This document shows positions 8,562-35,801 of a stretch of 64,000 bases of DNA, piece by piece. This DNA is from Clostridia bacterium (GTDB taxonomy: Bacteria > Bacillota > TC1 > JBAXCZ01): contig JBAXCZ010000004.1 of assembly GCA_037141195.1 (NCBI GenBank), forward strand, positions 37,043 through 101,042. The letters run 5' to 3'. Position 1 is the stretch's first letter. The number at the start of each line of letters is the position of its first letter. The position numbers were made by a program, and so were the translations under genes. Under the pieces are notes generated by a model. The model saw only the letters and a list, made by a program, of their open reading frames with translations. It was not told the DNA's origin and ran no database searches.

Positions 8562-8563
8562 GC

Positions 8564-9544: not shown

Positions 9545-9610
9545 AACAAAAAATGGCAGTTAGAAGTTCTAAAAATGGTGCACTTCTTTAGCAAGGGTGG
9601 TGATGATTAG

Positions 9611-10901: not shown

Positions 10902-11711
10902 ATGAGTTTAATTGAGTATCATCCAGGAAAATCATTTATGCATAAACTAGATCCAAGAGTTAAAATATTCATGATGTCAATATTAACAATTGTGATATTT
11001 ATGGTACAAAATTTTTATGTGATAGCAGCATTGTTTATTACATTTTTAGCATTATGGAATAATGCTAAATTACCAGCTAAAAATCTCAAAAATTACTTCA
11101 TATTCATGATAGGCTTACTAGGTTTTATTATATTATTGCAAACCTTATTTTATCCAGGAAGCCATTACATCCTCAAACCTCTAATTCCGAATTTTGTACC
11201 ATTGATAGGTGGAATGGGAGCATTGAAATGGGAAGGATTTCTATTCGGTTTATTATTAGGCCTTAGATTAATAACATTAATAGTATTAATGCCATTAGTA
11301 ACCATGACAACACCAATACATTTATTAGCATTAGGGTTAGTTAGACTAGGAATGAGTTACAAAATAGCCTTTATGACAACTACAGCTATTAACCTAATTC
11401 CAACCTTTGAAAGTGAAACACAAGTAATAATGGATGCGCAAAAAATGCGAGGAATGAAAGATTTCGAAGAAGGCGGAATATTAAAAAAAATGAAAGCTTA
11501 CCCAGCATTAGTAGTTCCTTTAGTAATAGGAGCCATGAGAAGAGCTCAAATGATGGGAGTAGCCATGGATGCTAGAGCATTTGGCGCATATCAGACTAGA
11601 ACCTACATTGAAGATATAAAAATGCAAAAAAAAGATTATCTAGTAATTATTTTGATAGCCATTTATGCAGTAGCTGCAGTAGTAATAAACTATATGCTAC
11701 AAGGGAGGTAA
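10902..11711 (+). CDS. ECF transporter transmembrane T component (EcfT/CbiQ family)
   Basis: Polytopic membrane protein with the C-terminal MRRAQMMGVAMDARAFG coupling motif. Confidence 0.85.
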   Translation: MSLIEYHPGKSFMHKLDPRVKIFMMSILTIVIFMVQNFYVIAALFITFLALWNNAKLPAKNLKNYFIFMIGLLGFIILLQTLFYPGSHYILKPLIPNFVPLIGGMGALKWEGFLFGLLLGLRLITLIVLMPLVTMTTPIHLLALGLVRLGMSYKIAFMTTTAINLIPTFESETQVIMDAQKMRGMKDFEEGGILKKMKAYPALVVPLVIGAMRRAQMMGVAMDARAFGAYQTRTYIEDIKMQKKDYLVIILIAIYAVAAVVINYMLQGR

Positions 11712-11714: not shown

Positions 11715-12578
11715 ATGGCAGAAGCAATGATAAAAATAGAAAATTTGAGTTATCGGTACCCAAGAACAAAGAAGTGGGTATTAAAAGATATTAGTATAGA
11801 AATTCATAAAGGTGAGTTTATTGCTATTATGGGAGAAAATGGTGCTGGCAAAACAACTTTTTGCCAATGTCTAAATGGAGTAATCCCACATTCACATGAA
11901 GGAAAACTAAAAGGTGTAGTGATTGTAGATGGAATGGTGACTGCAGAAACACCAATTTCCAAGTTAGCTGATAGCATAGGTATGGTATTAGAAGATCCAG
12001 AAACACAATTATTTACTACAATAATTAGAAACGAAGTAGCGTTTGGTCCAGAAAACCTCAACATTCCCATCGATGAAATCAAACGAAGAGTAAACTGGGC
12101 ATTAGAGGTAGTAGGACTAACGGAATATATTGATGAAGCTCCAACGGCACTATCTGGGGGGCAGAAACAAAGATTAGCTATAGCTGCTGCTTTAGCCATG
12201 TTACCTAAAGTATTAGTATTAGATGAACCAACCTCTCAACTAGACCCAATTGGTACGAGAGAAGTTTATAATGTAATCCGCGAAATCAGAGAAAAGCATG
12301 ATATTACCATCGTGATGGCAACCCATAAAAGTGAAGAAATAGCAGAATTTGCCGATAAGGTATTAGTAATCAAGGATGGCCAAGTAGCTGCATTTGATAA
12401 ACCCTGGAATATCTTTAACGATGAACAACTACTAAAAGACAATTGGATAAGACCGCCACAAGTCTCAGCATTAACCAATTACCTAAATGATCGAGGAGAA
12501 ATGTTGGAAAAATTTCCAGTTTTATTAGAGGATGCAGTAACAGAAATAATGAAGTGGTATAAAGGAGAACGAGTATGA
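11715..12578 (+). CDS. ECF transporter ATPase component A
   Basis: Walker A GENGAGKTT, signature LSGGQKQR and Walker B LVLDEPTS. Confidence 0.9.
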   Translation: MAEAMIKIENLSYRYPRTKKWVLKDISIEIHKGEFIAIMGENGAGKTTFCQCLNGVIPHSHEGKLKGVVIVDGMVTAETPISKLADSIGMVLEDPETQLFTTIIRNEVAFGPENLNIPIDEIKRRVNWALEVVGLTEYIDEAPTALSGGQKQRLAIAAALAMLPKVLVLDEPTSQLDPIGTREVYNVIREIREKHDITIVMATHKSEEIAEFADKVLVIKDGQVAAFDKPWNIFNDEQLLKDNWIRPPQVSALTNYLNDRGEMLEKFPVLLEDAVTEIMKWYKGERV

Positions 12579-13405
12579 AGAGCGTTGTCTTGAAAATCGA
12601 TGATTTAAGCTATAAATATAGCACTGGGAGCACGGCCTTAGAGCATATAAATATAGAAATTTATGAAAACGAATTTGTGGCAATTATTGGTCAGAATGGA
12701 GCAGGCAAATCCACCCTGCTAAAGAATATTACTGGGTTATTAACACCAACAGTAGGAAATACATATGTAAATGGAAGAAATACAAAAGATCTCACCGTAT
12801 CAAAAATAGCTATGGAAATAGGGTTTGTCTTACAGAATCCTGATCGACAATTATTTGCTGAAACAGTAGAAGAAGAAGTAGCTTATGGACTAAAAAATGC
12901 AAAGTTACCAGCAGATTTAATAGAACAGAAGGTGGTAGAATCACTAACTGCAGTTGGCTTACAAGATAAAAGGAAAGAATTTCCACCAGCATTAAGTAAA
13001 GGAGATAGAGCAAAAGTAGTAATTGCCTCTGTAATTGCTATGGGGGCAAAGATCATAATATTAGATGAGCCAACAAGTGGTCAAGATTATCGGGGCTGTT
13101 ATCAAATTATGAACATAGCGAAGGAATTACATAAAATGGGAAGAACAATAGTTTTTGTTACCCATAATATGTCCTTAGTAGCAGAGTATGCCAAGCGAAT
13201 CATCGTAATGTCTAGAAAAAGAGTGATGATGGATAGCGATGCAGAAGATGTTTTTAGCCAGCCAGAAAAATTAGCAACCACCAATATAACACCTCCGCAA
13301 ATAACTTTATTAGCAAGTAAACTGCAGGAATTCATACCCATAAAAAAGACGGTGCTTTTTATAGATGAGCTTGGCGATGAATTACTCGTGCTTCATAGAA
13401 AGTAG
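12575..13405 (+). CDS. ECF transporter ATPase component A'
   Basis: Walker A GQNGAGKST and Walker B IILDEPTSGQD. The start overlaps the upstream stop by 4 nt. Confidence 0.9.
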   Translation: MKSVVLKIDDLSYKYSTGSTALEHINIEIYENEFVAIIGQNGAGKSTLLKNITGLLTPTVGNTYVNGRNTKDLTVSKIAMEIGFVLQNPDRQLFAETVEEEVAYGLKNAKLPADLIEQKVVESLTAVGLQDKRKEFPPALSKGDRAKVVIASVIAMGAKIIILDEPTSGQDYRGCYQIMNIAKELHKMGRTIVFVTHNMSLVAEYAKRIIVMSRKRVMMDSDAEDVFSQPEKLATTNITPPQITLLASKLQEFIPIKKTVLFIDELGDELLVLHRK

Positions 13406-13412
13406 GCGATGT

Positions 13413-14198
13413 ATGCGGATTGATGCTCATACACATATTACTTATCCAGCAAATATTTTATATGAAAAAATGCGGGCATTAAACTTTAATAAAGTAGTTG
13501 TATGCTCTGCTGGAGTTGCAAGAGGAGAAAAAATCACAACTTTCTCAGCTGCTAAAACAATGATGAGAAAAATTGGCTTAGCACAAAACCATGCTCAGTC
13601 CCAAACTATTGCAGAAATAAATAAGGAATTAGCAGAAGTAATTTCAGGGTATCAAGACCTTTTCATTGGTTTTGCAAAGCTGGATTTATTTCAAGAAAAC
13701 ATGAAAATGGATTTAGCGAGAGCAGTAGATTTAGGATTACAAGGCATTGGGGAAATAATTGGCATTCATCAAAACATAGATAAACTTGAGCTTGTTTTAC
13801 AGGTTGCCCATGAAGCTGAACTACCAGTATTTATTCATTGCGATTATCCAGTAGATAGTAACGATTTGACAAGCTTATTTAAGATTATTCCGAAATATAC
13901 TCAAGCTAAGATTATAATTGGTCACTTAGGTGGAGATTATTGGTTAGAGGTAATTGAACAAGCAAAAAAAATTAGCAATGTATACGTTGACACTTCAGAG
14001 GTGGTTAATCAGATTGCTTTACAAGTTGCAGTAAATACATTGCCAGAAAGGGTTTTATACGCTTCTGATTTCCCATGGGATGCTCCAGAAGCAATGCTGA
14101 CCAGAATAAATTGCTTAAAAAATAATGATGGTGTGAAAGCACAAGTTTTGGGTTTGAATTTTTTAAGAATCTTAAAGGGCGAAAAGCTCGTAAGATAA
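13413..14198 (+). CDS. amidohydrolase_2 (PF04909-like) TIM-barrel metal hydrolase/decarboxylase family
   Basis: Has the MRIDAHTHI N-terminus typical of this family. I prefer the ATG at 13413, after the upstream stop, over the overlapping track start at 13365. Confidence 0.6.
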   Translation: MRIDAHTHITYPANILYEKMRALNFNKVVVCSAGVARGEKITTFSAAKTMMRKIGLAQNHAQSQTIAEINKELAEVISGYQDLFIGFAKLDLFQENMKMDLARAVDLGLQGIGEIIGIHQNIDKLELVLQVAHEAELPVFIHCDYPVDSNDLTSLFKIIPKYTQAKIIIGHLGGDYWLEVIEQAKKISNVYVDTSEVVNQIALQVAVNTLPERVLYASDFPWDAPEAMLTRINCLKNNDGVKAQVLGLNFLRILKGEKLVR

Positions 14199-14220: not shown

Positions 14221-14961
14221 ATGAAAGAGAACAAAGTTGGAGACAAAAGACTGTTAGGAAGCATCCATCCAGCGGTAATAGCAGTGTGGGCAGCTGTAAT
14301 CGCAGCATCATGCATGTTACCATCAATCCCGCTACTAGGAACAGGTGGGACATTTTCCATTGCTACAGCACTAGTTCCATTGGCAGGTGTTTTATTTGGG
14401 CCAATTGGAGGAGCAATATGTGCAGCAATAGGAGGATTTATTGGACAATTGATTGCTCCACATATTGCCTGGATGGGATTAGCAACATTTTCCATTGGCG
14501 TAATCAATGCATTTTGTTCAGGTCTAATTAGCAGAGGTAAATGGCCATATGCAGTAGGCGTTCTAGGAATTGGAACAGTATTATGGTTTAGTACTGCAAC
14601 CGGTAGAGCAGTACCACTCTTTGCCATAGTATTTTATGGCGCTGGCTTACTTGTAACTGTTGTAGGTGGAATGTTCGCGAAAAAATGGTTACTTGGCAAA
14701 AATATTGCTTTAAAAACAGTAGCTGTATGGATATGTTCATTTGCAGGATTAGTAGGCGCAGCATCTATCGCTAATTATTTTGCCTTGACTATGTTCCAAA
14801 CACCAGCAGAGGTTTGGACAGTATTAACAGTAATGTCACCAATTGAGCGGACAATATTTGCAGTAGGCTCAGCAATAGTAGGGGTACCTTTGCTAGTTGG
14901 TTTGCCAAAGATTGGAATTTTCGTAGGACCACAGACAGTAGAAGTGGATGACGAAGAATAG
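14221..14961 (+). CDS. ECF S-component-like integral membrane protein, substrate unknown
   Basis: A 246-aa Gly/Ala-rich protein with about 6 TM helices, adjacent to ecfT/A/A'. An AAGGGGG RBS precedes it. Confidence 0.6.
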   Translation: MKENKVGDKRLLGSIHPAVIAVWAAVIAASCMLPSIPLLGTGGTFSIATALVPLAGVLFGPIGGAICAAIGGFIGQLIAPHIAWMGLATFSIGVINAFCSGLISRGKWPYAVGVLGIGTVLWFSTATGRAVPLFAIVFYGAGLLVTVVGGMFAKKWLLGKNIALKTVAVWICSFAGLVGAASIANYFALTMFQTPAEVWTVLTVMSPIERTIFAVGSAIVGVPLLVGLPKIGIFVGPQTVEVDDEE

Positions 14962-15077: not shown

Positions 15078-15398
15078 ATGGCTAGAGTAAGTAAACATCC
15101 AATTCTAGAAATAAAGCAAAAAAAAGAATTTTATATAACTTACAATGCACAACAGCTAAAGGCCTTAGAAGGTGAGACAATTGCCGCAACTCTTTTAGCA
15201 AATGGGATAAGAATATTTAGATATACAAGTAAATATCAGGAACCGCGAGGTCTTTTTTGTGGAATAGGTCAGTGTACAGATTGCATCATGGAAGTAAATG
15301 GAAAGCCAAATATCAGAACATGTATCACAATTGTCGAACCAGATATGAAGGTATGCACTCAAGTAGGATCTGGCAAATGGGGTGAAAAAAATGCGTGA
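15078..15398 (+). CDS. (2Fe-2S)-binding small subunit (HcnA / sarcosine-oxidase-alpha N-terminal-like)
   Basis: A 106-aa ORF with the Cys cluster CGIGQCTDCIMEVNG...RTC. Confidence 0.75.
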   Translation: MARVSKHPILEIKQKKEFYITYNAQQLKALEGETIAATLLANGIRIFRYTSKYQEPRGLFCGIGQCTDCIMEVNGKPNIRTCITIVEPDMKVCTQVGSGKWGEKNA

Positions 15399-16476
15399 AT
15401 ATGATGTGATAATCATTGGAGCAGGGCCAGCGGGGCTAGGAGCTGCGATTGAATTAGCTAAGGCCGGAGCGAGGCCATTGCTAATTGATGAAAACTCTAA
15501 GCCAGGAGGGCAACTATTCAAACAAATTCACAAATTTTTTGGCTCGAAGGAACACTATGCAGGTACTAGAGGCTATATAATTGGTGAAAATCTATTAAAA
15601 GAAGCAGCTGAATTAGGAGTAGAAATTCTCTTAAATACAAGAGTTTGGGGAATCTATCCAGATAATAGCATAACAATAGTAACAGCAGCATACAGCGAGC
15701 GATTAAAGGCTAGATTTATCATTATAGCAACAGGAGCATCAGAAAATGCACTTAGTTTTCCTGGTTGTACCATGCCAGGAGTAATAACTGCAGGAGCAGC
15801 ACAGACATTTGTAAATATTTATCATGTTTTACCTGGCAAGAAAGTTGTTGTAGTTGGGTCTGGAAATGTAGGACTTATAGTAGCGTATCAATTAATGCAA
15901 GCAGGAGCAAAAGTTGAGGCTATTATTGAAGCAATGCCAAAAATTTCTGGCTACGCAGTACATGCAGCAAAAGTAAAAAGAGCTGGAGTTCCAGTGATAT
16001 TAAGTCATACAATAGTAAAAGCTGTTGGTGATAGCGAGCTCGAGGGAGTTATTATTGGCAAGCTAGATGATCAAATGCAGCATATCCAAGGTTCAGAAAA
16101 GTTAATTGAAGCAGATACTATATGCATAGCAGTAGGCTTAACCCCAAGAATAGAGCTTGCAGCTTTGGGAAATTGCAAGCTGCAATATTCACCTATCCTA
16201 GGTGGAATGTTGCCATGGCATAACAGTAATTTGGAAACAAGTCAAGAGAGCATCTTTGTGGCAGGTGATGTGGCAGGAATTGAAGAAGCCAGCACAGCCT
16301 TAGATGAAGGTCGCTTAGCAGGAGTTACAGTCGCACTAAAATTAGGGTTAATAGATGTCAAAGTTTTCAAAATACAAGATGAAATAATCAAGAATAGGCT
16401 CAACTCTTTAAGGCAAGGTACTTTTGGTGAAAAGCGCAGAAAAGCGAAACATGAAATCTGGGAAGCTAAAAATTAG
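15391..16476 (+). CDS. NAD(P)/FAD-dependent oxidoreductase (HcnB/OoxA/PDH1-alpha-like)
   Basis: Two dinucleotide folds, DVIIIGAGPAG and VVVVGSGNVG. The ATG at 15391 overlaps the upstream stop (ATGCGTGA), and the RBS is GGGGTGA. Confidence 0.8.
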   Translation: MREYDVIIIGAGPAGLGAAIELAKAGARPLLIDENSKPGGQLFKQIHKFFGSKEHYAGTRGYIIGENLLKEAAELGVEILLNTRVWGIYPDNSITIVTAAYSERLKARFIIIATGASENALSFPGCTMPGVITAGAAQTFVNIYHVLPGKKVVVVGSGNVGLIVAYQLMQAGAKVEAIIEAMPKISGYAVHAAKVKRAGVPVILSHTIVKAVGDSELEGVIIGKLDDQMQHIQGSEKLIEADTICIAVGLTPRIELAALGNCKLQYSPILGGMLPWHNSNLETSQESIFVAGDVAGIEEASTALDEGRLAGVTVALKLGLIDVKVFKIQDEIIKNRLNSLRQGTFGEKRRKAKHEIWEAKN

Positions 16477-16486
16477 GGGTGACTGC

Positions 16487-16771
16487 ATGGATAGAGAAGA
16501 AGTCTGCAGATGCGAGGAAGTTACAAGAGAAGATATATTAAGCAGTATTAAGAATGGTGATAGAAGTTTAGAAGCGGTAAAAAAACGTACAAGAGCAGGC
16601 ATGGGATTCTGTCAAGGAAGAACATGTAAAAGGCTAATAGCAAGAATACTAAGTGAATATTATGATTTACCAATAGATACTTTTTTACCTGGTAGTATTC
16701 GTATACCAGTTGGTCCTTTAAGCTTAAAAATGATTGCAACTACTAAGGGTGGAGCGGACGCTGATAACTAA
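16487..16771 (+). CDS. BFD-like (2Fe-2S)-binding domain protein
   Basis: CRCEEVT...GFCQGRTC motif. I prefer the ATG at 16487, with an AGGGGTGA RBS, over the overlapping track start at 16424. Confidence 0.7.
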   Translation: MDREEVCRCEEVTREDILSSIKNGDRSLEAVKKRTRAGMGFCQGRTCKRLIARILSEYYDLPIDTFLPGSIRIPVGPLSLKMIATTKGGADADN

Positions 16772-16951
16772 TTTCCTCCAAATCTTGCTAGTGTCTGTGA
16801 TGAAGAAACATATTTTGTTATTTTCTATTTATCCAGAAAAAGGTTACTTTTATGGCTGTAGATAATTGCTTGAAGAAATAAAAAAATATTTAGCTTGAGA
16901 GTACTTATGCTTAGATTCCATCAAAGTCTGAGAAAATTGTGGGGTGAGTTG

Positions 16952-18298
16952 ATGATTTTAATTAAGAATGCTAGTTATCTTGTTCAAAATCAGGACGAAA
17001 TATTAGAAAATGTAGATATTCTTGTTAAAGATAATAAGATTTTTAAGATTGGAAAAGATTTAGGACTAAATTATCCTTATGAAAAGGTTATTGATGCAAC
17101 CAATAAGATTGTTGCGCCTGGCTTTATCAATATGCATACGCATTTATATCAAAATATGTTGAAGGGAATGCGCGATGATTTAGGGCTTAAAGACTGGTGT
17201 GAAAATGTGACATTTCCTTTTGCGATGATTATTCGCTCACAAGATAAAGAACATAATAATCAAGATTTAGCTTATTATTATGGATTATTAGGAGCAATTG
17301 AAATGCTCAAAAGTGGGATAACTACTTTTGTAGATATGGATATAATCTATGATAGTCTTTTCCAGTCATGGCAAGATTTAGGAGTACGAGGGATAGGAGC
17401 AATACAAGCGGTAAATCGCTGGGTACCCAAAGAATTAATGGACACAGATGAAAAAAGAATGGAAGGTATTAAAGCAACAGTAGAGAAATGGCATAATCAG
17501 GGCATTCTAAAAGTAGCAATTGCACCATCTACTCCATTTGCCTGTACGCCTGATTTTCTAGAATGGTTAAAAAATTTAAGCATAGAAAAGGATTTAGGTA
17601 TCTATATCCATATTTCTGAAACTCTTTGGGAGGTGGAGCAGTCGCTTGCAGATTGTGGACTTACCCCACTAGCTTATCTAGACAGTATAAACTTTTTATC
17701 AAAACAAATTTGCGCAATTCATGGTGTGCATTTTACAGAAAAAGAAATGCAAATTGCCAAGGAAAAGCAGGTAACCATTTGCTACAATCCCAAAAGTAAT
17801 GCCAAATTAGGTAGTGGCATAGCACCAATGGTCGAGTATAAAAAACTGGGAATAGATATTTGTTTAGCAACAGACGGTGCAGCATCAAATGATTTATTGG
17901 ACATTTTTGAAGAGATGCGTTTTGGTGTTATGCTGCAGAAAGCCAAATATCAGGATCCTGCTTGTTTTATAGCTGAGGATATTTATCAGATGGCAACTAA
18001 AGCAGGAGCAAAATATTTAGATATCGATGCTGGAGAACTGAAGGAAGGGAAACTTGCAGATATCATAATTTTAGCAACGGAAGAAGCACATTTTGCACCA
18101 GTGCATAATATTATTCAGCAAATTGTCTACTGTGGGAAAGAAAAATCGGTAGAAACCGTTTTAATCAATGGCAAAATAGTAATGGAAGATCGAAAGATCA
18201 AAGGGGTTGATGAAAGTTCAGCCGTAAAAAAAGCAGTAGAATTAGCGAAACAACGATATGGTGAGACTAGTAGAAAAAAATTAAGTGCAGAATTTTAG
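16952..18298 (+). CDS. amidohydrolase, COG0402-type (aminohydrolase/deaminase/chlorohydrolase family)
   Basis: PGFINMHTHLYQ metal-binding motif and a 448-aa fold typical of this family. The ATG at 16952 follows a GGGGTGAG RBS. Confidence 0.8.
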   Translation: MILIKNASYLVQNQDEILENVDILVKDNKIFKIGKDLGLNYPYEKVIDATNKIVAPGFINMHTHLYQNMLKGMRDDLGLKDWCENVTFPFAMIIRSQDKEHNNQDLAYYYGLLGAIEMLKSGITTFVDMDIIYDSLFQSWQDLGVRGIGAIQAVNRWVPKELMDTDEKRMEGIKATVEKWHNQGILKVAIAPSTPFACTPDFLEWLKNLSIEKDLGIYIHISETLWEVEQSLADCGLTPLAYLDSINFLSKQICAIHGVHFTEKEMQIAKEKQVTICYNPKSNAKLGSGIAPMVEYKKLGIDICLATDGAASNDLLDIFEEMRFGVMLQKAKYQDPACFIAEDIYQMATKAGAKYLDIDAGELKEGKLADIIILATEEAHFAPVHNIIQQIVYCGKEKSVETVLINGKIVMEDRKIKGVDESSAVKKAVELAKQRYGETSRKKLSAEF

Positions 18299-18310: not shown

Positions 18311-18730
18311 ATGAAAAAGGTATTTATTGATTGTCCAGAATTAATTCCTTGTAACCCATGTGAATCAGCTTGTTCTTTTGGCGCAATCATTATTGGAAAA
18401 AATATCATAGACCTTCCACAAGTAGACCTACTTAAATGTACAGGGTGTGGAAAATGTGTAGCTGCCTGTCCCGGGCAAGCTTGCTTTGTTGTTGATGAAG
18501 ATTATCAAGATGATTTAGCTACGATTGATTTCCCATATGAATATCTTCCAGAGCCTGTTGTAGGGCTGCAAGTCTATGCAAGAGATAATGAAGGTAGAGA
18601 TATTTGTAAGGGGGAAGTAATTAAAGTAATTAAAAATAAAAATAATCAACAAACAACAATAATTAGGTTAGCAGTTCCCAAAAAAAATGTTTATCAAGTA
18701 AGAGGTATAGGGATTATTGAGGAGGGTTAA
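18311..18730 (+). CDS. 4Fe-4S ferredoxin-domain protein
   Basis: CTGCGKCVAACP motif plus an N-terminal CNPCESAC. The ORF is 139 aa. Confidence 0.7.
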   Translation: MKKVFIDCPELIPCNPCESACSFGAIIIGKNIIDLPQVDLLKCTGCGKCVAACPGQACFVVDEDYQDDLATIDFPYEYLPEPVVGLQVYARDNEGRDICKGEVIKVIKNKNNQQTTIIRLAVPKKNVYQVRGIGIIEEG

Positions 18731-18731
18731 A

Positions 18732-19535
18732 ATGTATGTAATCAGCGGGGTTCTGAACACTAGTCTGGCAGGCGTAAGCGAAATAATCAATGAAAGAAAA
18801 AAGAACTTGTTATTAGAAGTGGTCAGAGAGCAAATTGCTGGTGGAGCACATTGTATTGCCTTAAATTGTGGAACACATATCACTACAGAAGTGGAGGATA
18901 TGGAATGGTTAGTAAAAACCATTCATGGGGAGCTGGAAATTCCAATTTGTATAGATTCTCCTAATGCTTTAGTACAAGAAGTAGGATTGAAAAACAACAA
19001 GTGTGGGAGAGCACTTGTAGATTCAATTACATTAGAACAATCAAGAATCAATGCTATTACACCACTAGTAAAAAAGTATAATGCCAAGGTAATTGTGTTA
19101 CTCCATGATGAAAGTGGAATGCCAAAAAATTCAGAGGAGAGACTTGCCTTACTCCCAAAACTTGAAACTGTTGTGCAAGAATTTGACTTACAAAAAGCTG
19201 ATATTTTTATTGATAGTTTGGTTTTTCCACTTGCAGTTAATACTGAAAACTCCAATATATATTTAGCTTCAGTTCAAGAAGCAAGAAAAAGATATCCCGG
19301 CTATCAATATTGCTGTGGATTAGATAATATTTCATTTGGACTCCCTCAACAAGAATTACTTAATATTGCTATGTTAGGAATGTTGGTAGGTATCAAGCAG
19401 GAAGCAGTAATAATTAAATTAACGCCTGCCGTGGTGGCTTTTATGCATACAATGCAAGGGCTAAGTGGATTGGATGTTGATATGAAAAAATATTTGCAAG
19501 CTTTTAGGAGTAAAAAATTAGAAGTTTTAAGATAA
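18732..19535 (+). CDS. pterin-binding domain protein (AcsE/MeTr, methyl-THF methyltransferase-like)
   Basis: Collinear with Moorella MeTr as I recall it: MEWLV, IDS, GMPK..EERL, IDSLVFP and GLDNISFG. The ATG lies 1 nt after the upstream stop and is preceded by a GGAGGG RBS. Confidence 0.7.
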   Translation: MYVISGVLNTSLAGVSEIINERKKNLLLEVVREQIAGGAHCIALNCGTHITTEVEDMEWLVKTIHGELEIPICIDSPNALVQEVGLKNNKCGRALVDSITLEQSRINAITPLVKKYNAKVIVLLHDESGMPKNSEERLALLPKLETVVQEFDLQKADIFIDSLVFPLAVNTENSNIYLASVQEARKRYPGYQYCCGLDNISFGLPQQELLNIAMLGMLVGIKQEAVIIKLTPAVVAFMHTMQGLSGLDVDMKKYLQAFRSKKLEVLR

Positions 19536-19545
19536 GGTGTTAATT

Positions 19546-20100
19546 ATGAAAAAAATGTTTTTAACCTTTGATGGAGCACCAAATTCACAAGGTACCCCGA
19601 AAATTCTAGAAATATTAAATAAATATCAAATACAAGGAACTTTTTTTCTAGAAGGTAAGCGCCTAGAGTCTAATCAGCAGCTTGCTCAAGAAATAATTAA
19701 AGCGGGGCATAGCATTGGAAATCATTCCTATAGTCATACGGAATTTGATAAATTAGAGCTTGCCGAATGTCTTGCAGAAGTAGAAAACACAGATAATTTG
19801 ATAAGAAATATTCTAGGCATCAAAACAAGGCTAATAAGACCACCTGCAGGGAAAATCACAGAAATAGAGCAAAAGTACTTAGAAAAGCTTGGTTATATCA
19901 TTAGCTTATGGAATATCAGTATTAAAGATTGGCTAGGACCAGATGCAGCTAGCATTGCTGCTAGGTTGGTGAAAGAGTTAGGAAAAGATGAAATAATTTC
20001 AGTGATGCATGATCATGTGGAGTGGATACCAGAGGTTTTAGACATTTCAATTCCCTACATCAAAGCAAATGGTTATGAATTTTTACCAATGAAAATGTAA
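19546..20100 (+). CDS. CE4 / NodB-homology (polysaccharide deacetylase family) protein, short and cytoplasmic
   Basis: FLTFDGAP and GNHSYSH motifs. There is no signal peptide and the protein is about 184 aa. Confidence 0.75.
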   Translation: MKKMFLTFDGAPNSQGTPKILEILNKYQIQGTFFLEGKRLESNQQLAQEIIKAGHSIGNHSYSHTEFDKLELAECLAEVENTDNLIRNILGIKTRLIRPPAGKITEIEQKYLEKLGYIISLWNISIKDWLGPDAASIAARLVKELGKDEIISVMHDHVEWIPEVLDISIPYIKANGYEFLPMKM

Positions 20101-20156: not shown

Positions 20157-21119
20157 ATGTTTAGTATCAACCAAGAGGCAGTAAGAATAGTTAAAGAGAA
20201 AATAATTCCTAATGTGGAAATGCTCAATTGCAAGTTACATTTATTGAAAAATGGGGCAACAGTTATAGATATGGGAGTAGAAATGCCTGGCGGATTTCTT
20301 GCCGGAAAATTATTTGTTGAAGCAACAATTGGTGGTATGGGTCATGTGGATTTTGGTAGATTTCAGTGTGGTGCTATTGATTTACCATCGATAGATGTAT
20401 ATATTGATCAACCACAGACAGCAACATTATCATCGCAATTCTCTGGTTGGAAAATGCCGGGAAAAAATTTAGATGGCTGGATTAATCCAATTGGTTCTGG
20501 ACCAGCAAGGGCAATTGCGAAGAATGATATTTTTGCTCAAAGTTGGAGCTATCAAGATCAGCATCATGAAACTGTTTTTGCCGCACAAACAGTAGAGCTA
20601 CCCGACGAAGAAATGGCAGAAATTATTGCCAAAGCATGTAAAATATCAGCATGTAATGTATATATTTTAGCAGCACGCACAGGGAGCCTAACAGGTTCAA
20701 TTCAAGTTTGTTCTCGTACGGTAGAGGCTTCAACATGGAGAATTTGTCGTAAAGGATTTGATATAGCTAAGATTATTAGTGGCATGGGTACTTGCCCAAT
20801 AGCTCCACCAATAAAAGATGAATTAAGGGCAATGGATAGAGTAAACACAGCATTATTATATGGAGTAACCGTGCGTTATTTAGTAGACTGTGCTGATTTA
20901 GAAATAACAAGTATAATTGAACAATTACCATTCAATGCCTCAAAAAGATATGGAGAAGAATTTATCGACTTATTCGAAGAAGGAAAACGCGATTTTTATA
21001 TAGTCGATAAGGATATCCACACAGTAGCTCGATATGAGATTACCAACATCGCCACAGGTAATACATTTAAGGCTGGAGTGCTCAGGGAAGATCTACTAGA
21101 AAAATCTTTGTTTCACTAG
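20157..21119 (+). CDS. methenyltetrahydromethanopterin cyclohydrolase (Mch) family protein, paralogue 2
   Basis: Collinear with the 6572 ORF at roughly half identical residues by eye: NGATVIDMG, LSSQFSGW, GSGPARAIA and GSIQVCSRTVE. The ATG at 20157 follows a GGAAGGAG RBS. Confidence 0.7.
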   Translation: MFSINQEAVRIVKEKIIPNVEMLNCKLHLLKNGATVIDMGVEMPGGFLAGKLFVEATIGGMGHVDFGRFQCGAIDLPSIDVYIDQPQTATLSSQFSGWKMPGKNLDGWINPIGSGPARAIAKNDIFAQSWSYQDQHHETVFAAQTVELPDEEMAEIIAKACKISACNVYILAARTGSLTGSIQVCSRTVEASTWRICRKGFDIAKIISGMGTCPIAPPIKDELRAMDRVNTALLYGVTVRYLVDCADLEITSIIEQLPFNASKRYGEEFIDLFEEGKRDFYIVDKDIHTVARYEITNIATGNTFKAGVLREDLLEKSLFH

Positions 21120-21150: not shown

Positions 21151-22290
21151 ATGGAAAAAACTAGAGTTCTAATTATAGGTGGAGGCATATTAGGAGCAAC
21201 TACAAGCTATTATTTAGCAAAGCAAGGTTATGCAGTTACAGTGCTAGAAAAAAATGAGCTAGCTTCAGGAGCCTCAGGTGCTAATCTAGGGCAAATTTCT
21301 ATTATAGATAGAGATGAACCCTGGCACCTTAAATTAGCATTAGAATCTCTAACTATATATGAAAACTTAAATCGAGAAACGCCCATAGCATATAAACAGT
21401 CTGGCGGGACAGTTGTCTTAATTAATGAAGAACAGGTAGAAGCAGCCAAACTTATGGCAGCGTATTTAGCTGCATATGGCATAGAGATTAGTTTTTATCA
21501 AGGTAAAGATATGCTGCGAATTGAACCATTTCTTGATTATACGAAAGTGCAAAGCCTAGCTTACTGTGCCCTAGAAGGAAAAATTGACCCTCTTGCAGCA
21601 ACCCTTACATTTTTTTCTAAGGCTAAAGAGCTTGGGGTAGAGATATTCACTAATACTTGTGTGGATAGTTTTGAGGTGGAAAATGGTAAAATTACGAAAG
21701 CTATTGCTAAGGAAAAAGAATATTTTGCAGATATTTTTATTAATGCAACTGGTGCCTGGGCAGGAGGCATAGGAGAACTTCTATGTCTAAAAATACCAAT
21801 TTGTTATCATCGTGGAACAGCTTTTGTTTCTCAACCTATAGCAAGTGTAATAAATGGGCCTGTTGTAGGTGGTGGTTTCATTTTGAAAAGTAGACTTGCT
21901 AGCGAAAAATTGAGAATTGGCTTGGCAGCAGTGCAAAATACCAATGGTAGTATCATCATAGCGCAAGCTACTGAAGAAAGCGAAGTTGATAGTAAAGAAA
22001 TAACAGCACAGGGGCTAACCTTAACGGCAGAAAAATTTATCACATATTTTCCAGCTCTAGCAGAATTGGAAATTGTCCGCGCATGGTCAGCAGTAACTCC
22101 ATACACAAAAGATGGGTTGCCTATATTTGGCTTTACTAAAAGCATCCAAAATTTCTTTGTAGTTGCTGGATTTAAGGGTGCCTTCTCAACTGCTCCAGCT
22201 GTTGGAAAAGCAGTGGCAAGAGCAATCAAGACAGGAATTGCCTATGAAAACAATAGTTTTTCTCCTGACAGAGAAATGCTGGAAAGCTAA
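21151..22290 (+). CDS. FAD-dependent oxidoreductase, DAO family, second copy
   Basis: RVLIIGGGILG...VLEKN..ASGASG dinucleotide fold. The ORF is 379 aa. Confidence 0.8.
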   Translation: MEKTRVLIIGGGILGATTSYYLAKQGYAVTVLEKNELASGASGANLGQISIIDRDEPWHLKLALESLTIYENLNRETPIAYKQSGGTVVLINEEQVEAAKLMAAYLAAYGIEISFYQGKDMLRIEPFLDYTKVQSLAYCALEGKIDPLAATLTFFSKAKELGVEIFTNTCVDSFEVENGKITKAIAKEKEYFADIFINATGAWAGGIGELLCLKIPICYHRGTAFVSQPIASVINGPVVGGGFILKSRLASEKLRIGLAAVQNTNGSIIIAQATEESEVDSKEITAQGLTLTAEKFITYFPALAELEIVRAWSAVTPYTKDGLPIFGFTKSIQNFFVVAGFKGAFSTAPAVGKAVARAIKTGIAYENNSFSPDREMLES

Positions 22291-22387: not shown

Positions 22388-24526
22388 TTGAATATCATAC
22401 CTGAAGATTATATAGAAAAAGTTTATGCTGGCTGGCTAGGAAAACTGATTGGAATACGGCATGGAGCTCCTATAGAAGGGTGGACCTATGAAAAAATAAA
22501 GAGAGTACACGGTACAATAACAGATTATCTAGTAGACTACAATGATTTTGCTGCTGATGATGACAGTAATGGACCTGTATTTTTTCTGAGAGCATTAGAA
22601 GATTATGATTATACACTCAAACTCACACCTGAGCAAATTGGTTTGACTTGGCTAAACTATGCACCATATGAACATGGTTTTTATTGGTGGGGAGGCTACG
22701 GAAAATCCACCGAACACACAGCATATTTGAATATGCGTAATGGTATCATGGCTCCAAAATCAGGTTCTATCCAGCAAAATGGGGTAACAGTAGCCGAGCA
22801 GATAGGTGGTCAAATTTTTATCGATACTTGGGGACTAGTAGCACCAGCTAATCCAAAACTTGCGGCAGCATATGCCAGAAAAGCAGCAAGTGTATCACAT
22901 GATGGAAATGGTATATTTGGTGGGATGTTTATTGCAGCATGTATAAGTGCGGCCTTTATTCAAGAAAATATCAAAGACATATTAGAAAGTGGCTTTTCTG
23001 TAATTCCGGCAGATTGCGATTATACATTAGTTATGCGTAGTGTTATGAGTTTTCACGAAAAATATCCAGAAGACTGGGAAAAATGTTTTAATTTTATTGA
23101 TGCTAATTATGGCTATGATAAATATCCAGGCAACTGTCATATAATTCCCAACGGAGCAGTTATGATTCTCGCGCTGCTATATGGTGAAAAAGATTTTACT
23201 AACTCCATTAACATCTGCAACATGTGTGGTTGGGATACGGATTGTAATGTAGCCAACATAGGCACGATATTAGGCGTGGCAAATGGCATCATCGGTCTTG
23301 ATTATAATAAGTGGCGAAAGCCCATTAATGATTTTTTTATATGCTCAAGCGTTATTGGCTCGCTAAATATCCAAGATGCGCCACAATTTACTACCTACAT
23401 CGCAAAATGGGGATATAAAATTGCGGGGCAAGAGCCGGAGAATAAATGGAAAAAAATATTATTTGGGGGCGCAGCAAGATTCCACTTCCAGCTTCCTGGT
23501 TCGACACATGGGTTTAGAGTAGCATCAGATTCGCTAACAAAACTGGAATATGCTCTGGTAAATACAAATATAGCAAACATGAATCTAAATGGATCACTTA
23601 AGGTCTCAGTGAACGGAATTGCTGCAGGGGAAGACTTTCGTATCTTCACAAAAACATATTATCGGCCTGAAGATTTTCATGATAGTAGGTATGATCCGTC
23701 TTTTTCGCCTGTTCTTTATCCAGGACAAAGCATCTCAGCTATGGTTATGCTACCTGAATGGTTAGAAAAATCTGAAATACTTGTTAGCATGTATGTGAAA
23801 GATGGGAATTACAACAAATATTTCGATTCAGAAAAAACCTTGCTGACAAGGGGAAAATGGAATCTATTAAATTTTAAGCTACCAAATATGGAGGGTGCTT
23901 GCTTAGAAGAGGCAGGCATAAGAGTAACTGTAAAATCAAATCAGAGGTTTTTGGATAATTCTCTAGTTATATATATTGCTAACTTGGATTTTTCAGGTAA
24001 GCCTAACTATACAATTGATTTTTCCAAAGAGCGGATGGAGTTTTGGAACGGATTACATCAGGAGGTAAGCCAGTTTACTTATCTCAAAGGAAACTGGGAA
24101 CTTGTAGATGATGAATTAGTTGGCAGCGCCTGTGATTTTGGAGAAGCATATACAGGGTCTTATGATTGGGAAGATTATACATTTGAGGCAACCTTAATAC
24201 CAGTAACTGGAGAATCTCATTATATGAATTTCCGAGTGCAAGGAGCAATTCGTTCATATGCATTTGGATTGGAATCAGATGGTAAGGCAATGCTTCGCAA
24301 GAACAACAACGGGTATTCAAAGCTAAGTGGAATAGACTTTGCATGGGAATACAATCATGAATACAGGTTTAGAGCTGAGGTAAAGTATAATTCAATCAGA
24401 ATATGGCATGAAAATATTCTGCTTGTTGAGTATTTTGATAATGATAACCCTTATCTCCAAGGCCAAATTGGTTTTTCTGTGTATAATGGAAGTCGTTGTA
24501 AGTTTAAGGAGTTGAGCATTTATTGA
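22388..24526 (+). CDS. ADP-ribosylglycohydrolase-family domain fused to a C-terminal DUF1080/LamG-like jelly-roll domain
   Basis: N-terminal GWLGKLIGIRHGAPIEG and GWDTDCNVANIGTILG motifs of the ARH family. The C-terminal region of about 200 aa resembles 3-keto-disaccharide hydrolase/DUF1080. The TTG start lies 8 nt after a GAGAGGTGAG RBS. Confidence 0.7.
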   Translation: MNIIPEDYIEKVYAGWLGKLIGIRHGAPIEGWTYEKIKRVHGTITDYLVDYNDFAADDDSNGPVFFLRALEDYDYTLKLTPEQIGLTWLNYAPYEHGFYWWGGYGKSTEHTAYLNMRNGIMAPKSGSIQQNGVTVAEQIGGQIFIDTWGLVAPANPKLAAAYARKAASVSHDGNGIFGGMFIAACISAAFIQENIKDILESGFSVIPADCDYTLVMRSVMSFHEKYPEDWEKCFNFIDANYGYDKYPGNCHIIPNGAVMILALLYGEKDFTNSINICNMCGWDTDCNVANIGTILGVANGIIGLDYNKWRKPINDFFICSSVIGSLNIQDAPQFTTYIAKWGYKIAGQEPENKWKKILFGGAARFHFQLPGSTHGFRVASDSLTKLEYALVNTNIANMNLNGSLKVSVNGIAAGEDFRIFTKTYYRPEDFHDSRYDPSFSPVLYPGQSISAMVMLPEWLEKSEILVSMYVKDGNYNKYFDSEKTLLTRGKWNLLNFKLPNMEGACLEEAGIRVTVKSNQRFLDNSLVIYIANLDFSGKPNYTIDFSKERMEFWNGLHQEVSQFTYLKGNWELVDDELVGSACDFGEAYTGSYDWEDYTFEATLIPVTGESHYMNFRVQGAIRSYAFGLESDGKAMLRKNNNGYSKLSGIDFAWEYNHEYRFRAEVKYNSIRIWHENILLVEYFDNDNPYLQGQIGFSVYNGSRCKFKELSIY

Positions 24527-24615
24527 TGGTTTATCAGTCTTGTAAGCAAAAACACTCTGAACAATCGTAGCAGATAGTAAAGTAAGCATAACAACTAAGG
24601 AAAAAAGGAGAAGCT

Positions 24616-24639
24616 ATGAAAATTGCCATTAACCCATAG
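24616..24639 (+). CDS. 7-codon upstream mini-ORF (MKIAINP)
   Basis: A strong AAGGAG RBS lies 6 nt upstream. The stop is 12 nt before the main ATG, which has no RBS of its own. Confidence 0.25.
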   Translation: MKIAINP

Positions 24640-24651
24640 CTGAGTGTATAT

Positions 24652-25623
24652 ATGCGAGTAGCTATATTATTTAACCCTAACGCAGGTGGTAATAGTCACT
24701 ATACTAATATTGGAAAGATTTTGGGAGAACGATTAAAAGGCTGTAAAATAAAAACATACCCAGGACTTTATGGTCAAACATATATAGAAAATGCTGAAAT
24801 TGTCTCAAGGGTGAATGCTACTGGAGATTACCTTAAAGATCTTTATTCTATAATAATGGAGGTTATCAAAACAAATCCTGAGCTTTTAGTTTGTGTGGGC
24901 GGTGATGGGTTTTTAGCATATATAGCAGATGCAATGATTAGAAACAACATCAAGATTCCACTGCTAGGGATAGCGGGAGGAACTGCAAATGTAGGACCGC
25001 TGATCAATTTTACAGCTGCCAGCTTAATGAGGCTTGATTTAGCTAAAATCAAATTGTCACCAGTCGGTGCTTTGGAAGTAGCCCTTAATAAGAGTATCAA
25101 AGGATACGCTTTTAATGATGTGATAATTGGAAATACTTTTCTTGGGATGCTAAATGAACAAATGTCCAATATTGGTGTAGAAACCTTTATACAAACTGGA
25201 ATTAAAAAAAAGCTAGCACCGTCAACAGATATTGTGCTAGACTATTTTCAGATTGCAAAAAACGAGTTAACATTGCAGTTTAACATGAAAAAGCCTGCTC
25301 AAATTGTAATATCTCCAATTGAAGGAAAAAATTATCTAGGAAAAGCGATAACTGGTTTATTATGTCATGCAACTTTGACAAAAAGTAAAGCGGCATTAGC
25401 ATTACTTGACCGAGTAATAGTAAGCATGGAATCTGAGAACAAAGACAATGAGCTGATGTCGATTGAACAGCTGATTTTTACGGAAGAAGATAAGCTAAGT
25501 ATTTCAGGACTTTCTCGGAATGGTCATGTGATAATTGACGGAAATCCATTTATCAGACAAGCTAAAGAAGCGGTGAATATCAGGTGCATTGCAAATGCCG
25601 TTATTGGTGTTAATATGCTTTAG
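24652..25623 (+). CDS. NAD kinase / diacylglycerol kinase catalytic-fold protein (AcoX-like)
   Basis: VCVGGDGF and GIAGGTAN motifs of the ATP-NAD kinase fold. The ORF is 323 aa. Confidence 0.6.
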   Translation: MRVAILFNPNAGGNSHYTNIGKILGERLKGCKIKTYPGLYGQTYIENAEIVSRVNATGDYLKDLYSIIMEVIKTNPELLVCVGGDGFLAYIADAMIRNNIKIPLLGIAGGTANVGPLINFTAASLMRLDLAKIKLSPVGALEVALNKSIKGYAFNDVIIGNTFLGMLNEQMSNIGVETFIQTGIKKKLAPSTDIVLDYFQIAKNELTLQFNMKKPAQIVISPIEGKNYLGKAITGLLCHATLTKSKAALALLDRVIVSMESENKDNELMSIEQLIFTEEDKLSISGLSRNGHVIIDGNPFIRQAKEAVNIRCIANAVIGVNML

Positions 25624-25792
25624 ACTAGCTCAATAAATCATAATAAATTGTTACTATTAAAAGTAGATATATTAAGTATAAATTGAAGATATTAAGTGGA
25701 CAAATGCTAGTTGTGTAAAGATTTTAGTAGAGTTATAAACTAAAAAGATATGATTTTAATACTTTAACTTGCACTTCAGGGGGAAATATTGC

Positions 25793-26710
25793 ATGCCAAG
25801 GATAACCGTAATAGGCAGCTTAAATATGGATATGGTGATAACTACGCCTAAGATACCAGTAATTGGAGAAACTGTTTTGGGAAGCGGATTTGCGATGTTT
25901 CCTGGTGGTAAAGGTGCAAACCAAGCAGTTGCGGCAGCAAGACTCGGTGGTGATGTGACCATGATTGGGTGTGTGTGTGAAGATTTTTTCGGAAAAGAAT
26001 TAATTAGTAATCTTGCTAATAATGGAGTAAATATTTCACATATTCAGAAAACAGATAATTGTGCTACAGGTGTTGCGATGATAGTCGTTAAAGACGGCGA
26101 CAACCTAATTATTGTTGATCCAGGAGCTAATAGTAAACTTGAGGAGCAACAAATTCAAAATATGGAATTGATCATTGCAGAAAGTAAAATGCTTATTATA
26201 CAATTAGAAATACCTCAAAAAACTGTATTGAAAGCAATGCAATTAGCAAGAAAACATAATGTGCAAGTACTCTTAAATCCTGCACCTGCTAGTAAACTTA
26301 GCGATGAATTGTTAGCCTTAGTGGATATTTGCACTCCAAATGAAACTGAATGTGAAATCCTTACTGGGATAACTATCAAGCAAATAAAGGATGCAGAAAA
26401 AGCCGTGCGCTACTTAAATAAAAAAGACATACCAATAGTAATTGTGACAATGGGAGCAAAAGGCGTAGTATACAATCAAGGAGATAAAATTGTTCATAAG
26501 AAGGCAACTAGGGTTAGGGCAGTGGATACAACTGGGGCAGGTGATGCTTTTTCCGGCGCAATTGCTGTAGCATTAACTCAAGGGGTAGCTTTAGCTGATG
26601 CAATAGATTTTGCGAGTATGGTAGGAGCCATAACAGTTACTAAGAGGGGCGCGCAAGCTTCCTTTCCGAGTATTGAGGAAGTAAGAGCTTTTAAGGCAGA
26701 AATAATATAA
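25793..26710 (+). CDS. rbsK: ribokinase
   Basis: GGKGANQAVAAARLG and DTTGAGDAFSGA PfkB/ribokinase signatures. The ATG at 25793 follows an AGGGGGAAA RBS. Confidence 0.85.
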   Translation: MPRITVIGSLNMDMVITTPKIPVIGETVLGSGFAMFPGGKGANQAVAAARLGGDVTMIGCVCEDFFGKELISNLANNGVNISHIQKTDNCATGVAMIVVKDGDNLIIVDPGANSKLEEQQIQNMELIIAESKMLIIQLEIPQKTVLKAMQLARKHNVQVLLNPAPASKLSDELLALVDICTPNETECEILTGITIKQIKDAEKAVRYLNKKDIPIVIVTMGAKGVVYNQGDKIVHKKATRVRAVDTTGAGDAFSGAIAVALTQGVALADAIDFASMVGAITVTKRGAQASFPSIEEVRAFKAEII

Positions 26711-26844
26711 TGTGTGAATTGAAATCTTTCATTTATAGATTAATTCTTTGAATTTAATTACTTATTATTTATGAAGATACAACTTAAAATTGCCAATAGT
26801 TGTTTATTTAGGATCTGTGATAAGCTAGAGCATGACAAGAGAGG

Positions 26845-35786: not shown

Positions 35787-35801
35787 TTCGGCATAAATTG
35801 G

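Follow-up and report, generated by a model that had tools for sequence, protein, structure and literature searches.

A protein with the fold of methyl-tetrahydrofolate:corrinoid methyltransferases (MeTr) may act without a corrinoid partner in a Clostridia bacterium. Its gene (Pterin_bind) lies within the 64,000-nucleotide stretch of contig JBAXCZ010000004.1 that was analysed here (the window), packed between a gene for a 4Fe-4S ferredoxin-like protein (Fer4) and a gene for a CE4 protein of the NodB fold. As the best explanation of the whole, we tentatively propose that the pterin protein takes part in a corrinoid-independent, pterin-bound one-carbon (C1) relay that would end in formate, a reading with a real but minority chance of being right. 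The functions of all components, namely the pterin protein, the CE4 protein, the methenyl-tetrahydromethanopterin (H4MPT) cyclohydrolase-family enzymes (Mch) and an amine dehydrogenase, are predicted.

A MeTr-fold protein with altered pterin contacts

Gene families in the window were assigned by Pfam and NCBIfam profile scans, and the nearest solved relatives were sought by PDB sequence searches. The original prediction, which was made from the DNA letters alone, had aligned the whole open reading frame (ORF) with MeTr motifs. All of these are present (DMEWLV, CIDSPN, GMPKNSEERL, FIDSLVFP and CGLDNISFG), and the full-length assignment is borne out by profile, sequence and structure. PF00809 is matched, while MtrH (PF02007) gives no match at E <= 0.01. 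Full-length PDB sequence matches are 4o0q, 2yci and 2e7f (E 1e-28 to 1e-29), and an AlphaFold2 model (pLDDT 92) reaches TM scores of 0.87-0.91 to the same three structures (0.90 to 4o0q). These relatives, the O-demethylase component MT2-DH of Desulfitobacterium hafniense (4o0q/4o1e/4o1f) and MeTr/AcsE of Moorella thermoacetica and Carboxydothermus hydrogenoformans (2e7f, 2yci), share the (beta/alpha)8 fold over the full length at 26-29% identity. The 38 best structural matches of the model are all folate modules of cobalamin-dependent methyltransferases. Dihydropteroate synthase (DHPS) structures rank from the 39th place onward, with TM scores of 0.60-0.70 and 12-17% identity. A DHPS-like role was ruled out by this ranking, and no DHPS model is among the NCBIfam matches.

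The protein departs from its relatives in several respects. It stays below the cutoffs of two NCBIfam methyltransferase models, NF005719 (206.4 versus 259) and NF040758 (74.9 versus 370). We take Asp75, Asn96 and Asp160 to be the pterin-ring ligands of MeTr and Asn199 to be the N5-activating residue (Moorella numbering). Of these contacts, to which the original prediction had drawn attention, Asp75, Asp160 (Asp161 in the protein's own numbering) and Asn199 are kept, but Asn96 is replaced by Asp97; in addition, MeTr Arg207 is replaced by Gln207. The family alignment comprised 151 proteins, i.e. the window protein and the 150 best representatives of a library of 1.84 billion proteins. Asn is found at position 96 in 140 of the 151 (93%) and Arg at position 207 in 135 (89%). 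The complete quintet D-N-D-N-R is present in 119/151, and the window protein lacks it. Asp at position 96 marks the small clade of the window protein, and only 53 representatives reach E <= 1e-30. A Trp is aligned at the same position in the Anaerolineae version described below. For the related enzyme MtgA, the catalytic and pterin-binding residues were reported to be conserved among these enzymes, and an Arg shortly past the catalytic Asn was found to bind the gamma-carboxylate of tetrahydrofolate (THF) (PMC7154762). This Arg is the likely counterpart of Arg207.

No corrinoid partner in the window

The original prediction had noted that a corrinoid protein, an MtaA/MtbA-type partner and a reductive activase are absent from the cluster, and this holds for the whole window. 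Pfam scans of essentially all ORFs of at least 70 residues in the 64 kb gave no B12-binding, URO-D/MtaA or activase domain. A tblastn search with a genuine B12-binding protein and a search with the pattern DxHxxG...SxL...GG were likewise negative across the 64 kb. Of 82 collected related loci, 80 have no B12-binding homologue, and the exception is L001, the locus from which the tblastn query was taken. There the pterin homologue lies 1.3 kb from the DxHxxG B12-binding protein, and it is the only close Pterin_bind homologue that retains MeTr Asn96. The B12-binding gene of L001 (7933-8640, minus strand) overlaps an AraC-type regulator gene (8606-9802, minus strand). This arrangement may be an ancestral corrinoid-dependent state or a B12-sensing regulator pair.

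The window protein could also be an ordinary methyl-THF:corrinoid methyltransferase (MT2/MeTr) whose partners (corrinoid protein, MT1 and activase) have their genes in another part of the genome, the local gene order being incidental. Its 38 best structural matches, its catalytic Asn199 and the pair Asp75/Asp160 agree with such a role, as does the homologue of L001 near a B12-binding gene. We nevertheless consider it very improbable. No corrinoid protein accompanies the gene in the window or in the other related loci, and the sole homologue with a B12 neighbour keeps Asn96 where the window clade has Asp. The quintet of most family members is broken, both NCBIfam methyltransferase cutoffs are missed, and synteny with dehydrogenase, Mch or ECF importer genes is kept across phyla.

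Close homologues of the pterin protein (40-52% identity) are found in four kinds of setting. In the first, Pterin_bind directly follows a dehydrogenase operon or its DAO gene (L003, L043), or directly follows Fer4 as in the window (L052); the recurrence of the Fer4-Pterin_bind adjacency in L052 argues against chance. The second comprises mini-operons under LacI control (L006, L044, L004), where Pterin_bind overlaps an orthologous ECF S-component gene at the start of the latter. Large islands with Mch, E1/E2/E3 genes, Amidohydro_1 and a RibD_C-like gene form the third (L042, L051, L072), and L001 is the fourth. Orthologous S components adjoin Pterin_bind in L006, L042, L044 and L004. In at least nine Anaerolineae loci, Pterin_bind is the first gene of a Fer2_4-Pyr_redox_2-DAO operon. 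The link between the pterin protein and amine dehydrogenases that had been predicted is thus seen in loci where the gene directly follows or heads the dehydrogenase operon. An obligate pairing was ruled out, since L006 and L044 have Pterin_bind with the ECF transporter only. A RibD_C-like protein with a DHFR fold (325-329 residues) recurs beside Pterin_bind and ECF genes in other loci and is absent from the window.

The ferredoxin belongs to a split amine dehydrogenase

The eight Cys residues of the ferredoxin-like protein are invariant among 62 aligned homologues. Its orthologues (45-55% identity) are encoded inside Fer2_4-Pyr_redox_2-(Fer4)-BFD-DAO operons in L003, L043, L047, L048 and L049, and in every locus inspected the five-gene module of DAO, Fer2_4, Pyr_redox_2, SO_alpha_A3-BFD and Fer4 contains the ferredoxin gene. 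Fer4 is placed between Pyr_redox_2 and BFD in L003 and L043 and after BFD in L047 (Pseudoflavonifractor) and L048; in L049 it lies amid hydroxyproline-catabolic genes. The ferredoxin is predicted to be the fifth, electron-transfer subunit of a secondary/tertiary-amine dehydrogenase. Because it is integral to this module in other loci, it is not a dedicated partner of the pterin protein, and a role as reductant or activator of that protein was ruled out. The trio of Fer4, Pterin_bind and CE4, which had been read as a unit, is indeed tightly packed, but its ferredoxin belongs to the dehydrogenase.

The Pyr_redox_2 protein matches the alpha subunit of sarcosine oxidase (TSOX, 2gag_A) and PH1363. 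The Fer2_4, Pyr_redox_2 and BFD/A3 proteins together are a predicted split equivalent of the N-terminal two thirds of SoxA alpha, with the soxA model matched only at positions 12-95 and 169-484 of 996. The island enzyme resembles the heterotetrameric sarcosine oxidase SoxABDG (2gag) and the L-proline dehydrogenase PDH1 of Pyrococcus horikoshii (1y56) in its DAO-type beta subunit and in the Fer2_4, Pyr_redox_2 and A3/BFD domains. It differs from them in that alpha is split over three genes and lacks the C-terminal GcvT-type THF domain, and in an extra subunit with two [4Fe-4S] clusters. In TSOX, THF is the acceptor of the C1 unit. Pfam and NCBIfam scans found no GcvT-type folate domain (GCV_T) in the island, and the sole folate-type module nearby has the MeTr fold, not the GcvT fold. 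Amidohydro_1, Pterin_bind, CE4 and Mch2 are interspersed among the dehydrogenase genes of the window.

A cytoplasmic CE4 protein with an incomplete metal triad

Motif 1 of the CE4 protein starts at residue 6 and the catalytic domain at residue 2, and an alternative GTG start adds three residues only. There is therefore no room for a signal peptide, as had been predicted. The residue roles of SpPgdA (D276 as Zn ligand, the catalytic base and the acid His) were assumed for reading the alignment to 2c1g. Motif 1 reads TFDGAP, with Gly at the position of D276, and (T/S)FDG(A/S)P replaces TFDDGP in all 22 island orthologues. Of the Asp-His-His metal triad, the two His are kept and the Asp is lost. 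The catalytic-base Asp, HSxxH, RPPxG, DW and the acid His are retained, and these motifs are intact in the 22 orthologues. The protein falls far under every NCBIfam CE4 equivalog cutoff. The original prediction had also drawn an analogy to PuuE, which opens allantoin, but no PuuE model is matched in NCBIfam and a PuuE-like ring opening was ruled out. ArnD, a named NCBIfam family of CE4 N-deformylases, provides a precedent for formamide hydrolysis on this fold; its model NF011923 scores 18 bits against a cutoff of 382 (E 1.4e-3). The island protein thus has in common with SpPgdA (2c1g) the NodB fold, the base Asp, the His-His pair, the Arg, the Asp-Trp and the acid His. It differs from SpPgdA and ArnD in the Gly at the Zn-ligand position, in being cytoplasmic and minimal (184 residues), and in its fixed neighbour, which is Mch and not a glycan-synthesis gene.

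CE4 is present in about 21 of the 27 Mch2 loci with usable flanks. It directly adjoins Mch2 in nine loci of two phyla, namely the window, L057, L058, L061, L063, L068, L070, L074 and L075. The suggestion that CE4 may deformylate the Mch product is well supported, on comparative grounds, by this conserved adjacency in Clostridia and Anaerolineae. The pairing is not obligatory, with L042 having Mch and no CE4, and the metal triad is non-canonical. M20-family peptidase/deacylase genes occur in three other island versions (L042 19130-19978, L072 17657-18997 and L076 14636-15844), not in the window, and could possibly provide an alternative deformylase or carboxypeptidase step.

Mch paralogues and a cross-phylum island

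The window encodes two Mch-family enzymes, which share 55% identity and both exceed the TIGR03120 cutoff of 228.8 (Mch2 270.5, Mch1 285.5); Mch2 scores 224 bits against Mch of M. kandleri (1qlm). With Mch2 as anchor and one genome per species, the survey gave 33 loci from Oscillospiraceae, Lachnospiraceae, Peptococcaceae, Defluviitaleaceae and many Anaerolineae, in which Mch2 is 74-82% identical. A protein search added Mch2 of Acidimicrobiales (about 62-65% identity), and all matches are metagenome-assembled genomes (MAGs) or metagenome contigs. No cultured isolate is among the best 120 Mch2 matches. The neighbours of Mch2 are merely 26-47% identical between Clostridia and Anaerolineae, and this contrast suggests either an unusually strong constraint on Mch2 or a recent lateral spread of Mch2 alone.

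BLAST searches with the window genes define a conserved island of Mch2, Amidohydro_1, the dehydrogenase genes, an importer (ECF or Bmp-type ABC), Amidohydro_2 and GntR. Of the 23 loci with adequate flanks, 14 have Pterin_bind no more than 10 kb from Mch2, and several Clostridial Mch2 loci have none within this distance. The contig of L001 also bears Mch2 (seen as L054). Ten Anaerolineae loci share a luciferase-family gene that immediately precedes Pterin_bind; it is absent from the window and the Clostridial loci. The best NCBIfam models of its product are those of methylene-H4MPT reductase, below cutoff at 181 and 174 bits, with the next family at 93. This Mer-like gene would bring the pterin-C1 enzyme families of the island to three. 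In two loci, GntR and a RibD_C-like gene are neighbours of a third MCH paralogue, which is distant (PF02289 155 bits; identity to Mch1 about 23%).

No Fae, Mtd, Ftr, Fhc or H4MPT biosynthesis gene was seen in the window or in the sampled loci, and to our knowledge Clostridia, Anaerolineae and Acidimicrobiales are not makers of H4MPT. In methylotrophs Mch is followed by Fhc, i.e. the cyclohydrolase by a formyl-H4MPT hydrolase. Mch1 and Mch2 pass the same equivalog cutoff as Mch of methanogens and methylotrophs (1qlm, 4gvq), and the pair of Mch and CE4 mirrors this sequence. The island differs in having two to three Mch paralogues and in having CE4 in the place of Fhc.

A pterin-bound C1 relay and other explanations

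In the relay that we propose, an imported N-heterocycle would be oxidised by the dehydrogenase at an N-methyl or N-methylene group. A reduced pterin, bound by the MeTr-like protein, would take up the C1 unit at its N5 without a cobalt relay, and oxidation to the methenyl (cyclic amidinium) level would follow. Mch2 would open this ring to give an N-formyl group, and the CE4 protein would hydrolyse the formamide to formate with regeneration of the amine or pterin. The pterin itself may be provided by the ECF importer, joined in sister loci by a RibD_C-like reductase. The synteny of Pterin_bind with the dehydrogenase across Clostridia and Anaerolineae and the Mer-like gene beside Pterin_bind argue for this scheme, as do the ferredoxin as a dehydrogenase subunit, the MeTr/MT2 fold, the lack of corrinoid genes, the adjacency of CE4 and Mch2, and the ArnD precedent.

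Several observations weigh against it. No candidate for a methylene-to-methenyl dehydrogenase was found in the Clostridial version of the island. Often the dehydrogenase module is not accompanied by Pterin_bind (L047, L049), and in L006 and L044 the sole companions of Pterin_bind are an ECF transporter and a LacI regulator; the modules are thus facultatively associated, and their pairing in a C1 relay is not obligatory. That an island has two or three MCH paralogues points to a possible action of Mch on the heterocyclic substrate and not on a cofactor. We know of no precedent for formaldehyde or iminium capture by the MeTr fold. Since THF enzymes of these bacteria already cover the same steps, it is hard to see why Mch and CE4 would be required, except if the pterin is something other than THF. 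A gene for a corrinoid protein may also lie beyond the 64 kb.

The imported compound could itself be a cofactor of the pterin class, namely a folate, or methanopterin/sarcinapterin derived from methanogen necromass. Pterin_bind, the Mer-like protein, Mch and CE4 would then strip the methyl, methenyl and formyl loads, the dehydrogenase would cut C-N bonds and the TRZ/ATZ-type amidohydrolase would deaminate; in the window, the ADP-ribosylglycohydrolase (ARH)-like hydrolase and the ribokinase would recover ribose. We regard such pterin import as unlikely, though far from negligible. It would fit the translational coupling of Pterin_bind to the ECF S component in LacI mini-operons without dehydrogenase, Mch or CE4 (L006, L044), and the DHFR-like RibD_C gene nearby in L001, L042, L044 and L071. 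The scores of both Mch paralogues above the TIGR03120 cutoff, the similarity of Mch2 to the M. kandleri enzyme and the Mer-like gene of Anaerolineae point the same way. The loss of Arg207 would suit a non-folate tail, given that its likely MtgA counterpart binds the THF glutamate (PMC7154762). The MAG records also point to anoxic settings (groundwater, sediment, anaerobic membrane bioreactor). The importer of most loci, however, is an ABC system of the Bmp/PnrA type, which is typical for nucleosides, and several MCH paralogues per island would be superfluous for a single cofactor. An MtrH-family signal is lacking, neither a phosphodiesterase nor a hydroxyglutarate-specific enzyme was recognised, and no precedent for bacterial methanopterin catabolism was found in the literature. 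That the island serves bacterial scavenging of methanogen-type cofactors (methanopterin/sarcinapterin), with high-affinity uptake, with all C1 states unloaded (the Asp-less CE4 acting as a "formyl-pterin hydrolase") and with the pterin then mineralised, is in our view quite improbable.

A purine-like substrate would account for the nucleoside-type importers. Mch and CE4 would here act on a cationic or amidine compound, e.g. a 7-methylguanine-type imidazolium, possibly as riboside, and not on a cofactor. Mch would open the ring to a formamidopyrimidine, CE4 would deformylate it, the DAO complex would N-demethylate and the amidohydrolase would deaminate, while Pterin_bind would merely hold THF as a formaldehyde trap. 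Archaeal GTP cyclohydrolase III/ArfB offers a parallel, with ring opening followed by a separate deformylase. Besides the Bmp/nucleoside-type importers in most loci, the ARH-like hydrolase and the bona fide ribokinase of the window, the multiple diverged MCH paralogues and a host DNA rich in purine and nucleoside catabolic genes are in line with this idea, and the best models of the amidohydrolase are nucleoside or base deaminases. Yet Mch2 is as close to archaeal Mch as genuine bacterial Mch is and exceeds the equivalog cutoff, which favours a methenyl-pterin-like substrate. The Mer-like gene of Anaerolineae is hard to fit, and we know of no Mch-family enzyme that acts on purines. We consider a purine-like substrate rather unlikely. 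The pterin-bound relay remains the reading that we favour, at the tentative level given above.

Organisation of the gene run

The window has a GC content of about 37%, with nearly all genes on the plus strand (Table 1). The stop codon of the ferredoxin gene (18728-18730) is separated by 1 nt from the ATG of the pterin gene, whose start at 18732 and not at an upstream TTG follows from the alignment of homologues. The stop codon of the pterin gene (19533-19535) lies 10 nt before the ATG of CE4. Both gaps are as originally predicted. They show a compact operon, from which translational coupling of the trio can only be inferred.

The trio lies inside an uninterrupted run of 22 co-oriented genes (about 21 kb, 6572-27579). 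The order is Mch1, E1-alpha, E1-beta, DAO1, EcfT, EcfA, EcfA', Amidohydro_2, the ECF S component, Fer2_4, Pyr_redox_2, BFD/SO_alpha_A3, Amidohydro_1, Fer4, Pterin_bind, CE4, Mch2, DAO2, the ARH-domain protein, a DAGK-like protein, ribokinase and GntR. Housekeeping genes flank the run, with RNase Y and YmdB upstream and AlaRS downstream. The sole notable promoter-like site is a near-consensus one at 6149-6176, upstream of Mch1. In the promoter and terminator scan of the window the signal did not exceed shuffle expectation, and no convincing terminator was found inside the gene run. The trio is not a self-contained unit; it belongs to a larger catabolic island common to anaerobic Clostridia and Anaerolineae (Chloroflexi).

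Table 1. Positions of the features in the window, and in other loci where a locus name is given
Feature	Position	Strand	Basis or remark
Mch1, thiamine diphosphate (TPP)-dependent E1 alpha and beta, DAO1	6572-10777	+	Upstream part of the same co-oriented run
ECF importer: EcfT	10902-11711	+	Pfam
ECF importer: EcfA	11715-12578	+	Pfam
ECF importer: EcfA'	12575-13405	+	Pfam
ECF importer: S component	14221-14961	+	Pfam
Amidohydro_2 gene	13365-14198	+	Among the ECF importer genes; Pfam
Fer2_4	15078-15398	+	Pfam; for the three genes Fer2_4 to BFD/SO_alpha_A3, partial TIGR01372 soxA matches and PDB 2gag_A, 1y56_A
Pyr_redox_2	15382-16476	+	As for Fer2_4
BFD/SO_alpha_A3	16484-16771	+	As for Fer2_4
TRZ/ATZ-type amidohydrolase (Amidohydro_1), deaminase-like core island gene	16895-18298	+	PF01979 222.8 bits
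139-aa ferredoxin-like protein	18311-18730	+	Several Pfam Fer4 models; two [4Fe-4S] motifs, C8/C14/C17/C21 and C43/C46/C49/C53; conserved C-terminal domain
Shine-Dalgarno-like GAGGAGGG	18719-18726	+	5 nt before ATG 18732, inside the ferredoxin gene; read from the sequence
267-aa MeTr/MT2-fold pterin-binding protein	18732-19535	+	PF00809 59.9 bits, E 3.8e-16 (cutoff 25.5)
Shine-Dalgarno-like AAGGTG	19534-19539	+	Precedes CE4 ATG 19546
184-aa cytoplasmic CE4 (NodB-fold) protein, candidate N-deformylase	19546-20100	+	PF01522 104.5 bits, E 5e-30; 2c1g E 2.5e-31
Mch2, bacterial methenyl-H4MPT-cyclohydrolase-family enzyme, island signature gene	20157-21119	+	PF02289 333.9 bits, E 1e-99
DAO2, FAD-dependent beta-type catalytic subunit	21151-22290	+	PF01266 203 bits; best PDB match 1y56_B (P. 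horikoshii PDH1 beta), E 1e-37
712-aa ADP-ribosylglycohydrolase-domain protein, DAGK-like protein, ribokinase (25769-26710), GntR (26845-27579)	22388-27579	+	Downstream end of the island
Third MCH-family paralogue	L054 7714-8715	-	
Third MCH-family paralogue	L071 1736-2734	+	
Mer-like gene	L065 16304-17314	-	Also in 9 further Anaerolineae loci
RibD_C-like gene	L001 11195-12178; L042 10919-11908; L044 100-1077; L071 about 2830-3780		
RNA contig, Amidohydro_2	13649-13809		
RNA contig, ECF S component	14243-14400		
RNA contig, DAO2	21717-21871		
RNA contig, ARH-like	22440-22614		

Mch1 heads a block with E1 alpha and beta, without E2 or E3, and with a second DAO-type oxidoreductase; L042 has a similar block that also includes E2 and an E3-like gene. 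A PDB sequence search with the ECF S component gave no match. The best NCBIfam models of Amidohydro_1 are deaminases (nucleoside or base), all below cutoff, and orthologues are present in most Mch2 loci. At the downstream end (22388-26710), the 712-residue protein has an N-terminal ADP-ribosylglycohydrolase domain and a C-terminal extension of about 400 residues, and a PDB sequence search with it was also without match. The DAGK-like protein and the ribokinase follow, the latter bona fide by TIGR02152 (369.7 versus a cutoff of 299.65). The ARH-like protein and the ribokinase imply that free ribose is released from the substrate of the island. The ARH-like, DAGK-like and ribokinase genes were not found in the other island loci.

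Host context and expression

The organism derives from freshwater and lake metagenomes. Further downstream the window bears a nucleoside-utilisation operon (33922-41302) with a divergent DeoR gene, DeoC, a Bmp-type ABC transporter, cytidine deaminase and pyrimidine-nucleoside phosphorylase. A purine-type catabolic cluster (47197-58926) encodes two amidohydrolases, carbamate-kinase-like and OTCase-like proteins, the Mo, FAD and 2Fe-2S subunits of a xanthine dehydrogenase and an 876-residue DHO_dh-Fer4_20-Pyr_redox_2 protein. Judged by these genes, the host is probably a purinolytic anaerobe. Four short RNA contigs from metatranscriptomes of the same lake samples are 100% identical to the window, and none in these metatranscriptomes covers the trio. 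This suggests low in situ expression of the island genes, with DNA carry-over possible.

Implications

Literature searches on Mch in Firmicutes, Clostridia and Anaerolineae, on methanopterin catabolism and on ADP-ribosylglycohydrolase found no paper on this island. Each protein belongs to a known fold family yet is off its defining features: the MeTr-like protein is without corrinoid, Asn96 and Arg207, the CE4 protein without the metal Asp, and Mch outside H4MPT organisms. The island may be a new pathway. Mch, the MeTr-like protein and the Mer-like reductase of Anaerolineae belong to families that usually mark methanogen or methylotroph C1 metabolism. In fermentative Clostridia and Anaerolineae these families share a conserved island that also encodes an amine dehydrogenase, a deaminase and an importer but no cobalamin proteins. 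Annotation pipelines name the products "methenyl-H4MPT cyclohydrolase", "dihydropteroate synthase" or "methionine synthase", and "polysaccharide deacetylase", so metagenomic surveys may mis-score C1 and methane-cycle potential. If true, the proposal would add a corrinoid-independent role for the MeTr fold, a new CE4 chemistry in the form of formamide hydrolysis without the canonical metal triad, and, for anoxic habitats, a new route of N-heterocycle or cofactor catabolism. Were methanopterin scavenging instead the right reading, the island would let bacteria either exploit a cofactor made by archaea or degrade a methanopterin-type cofactor, by the first route of that kind.

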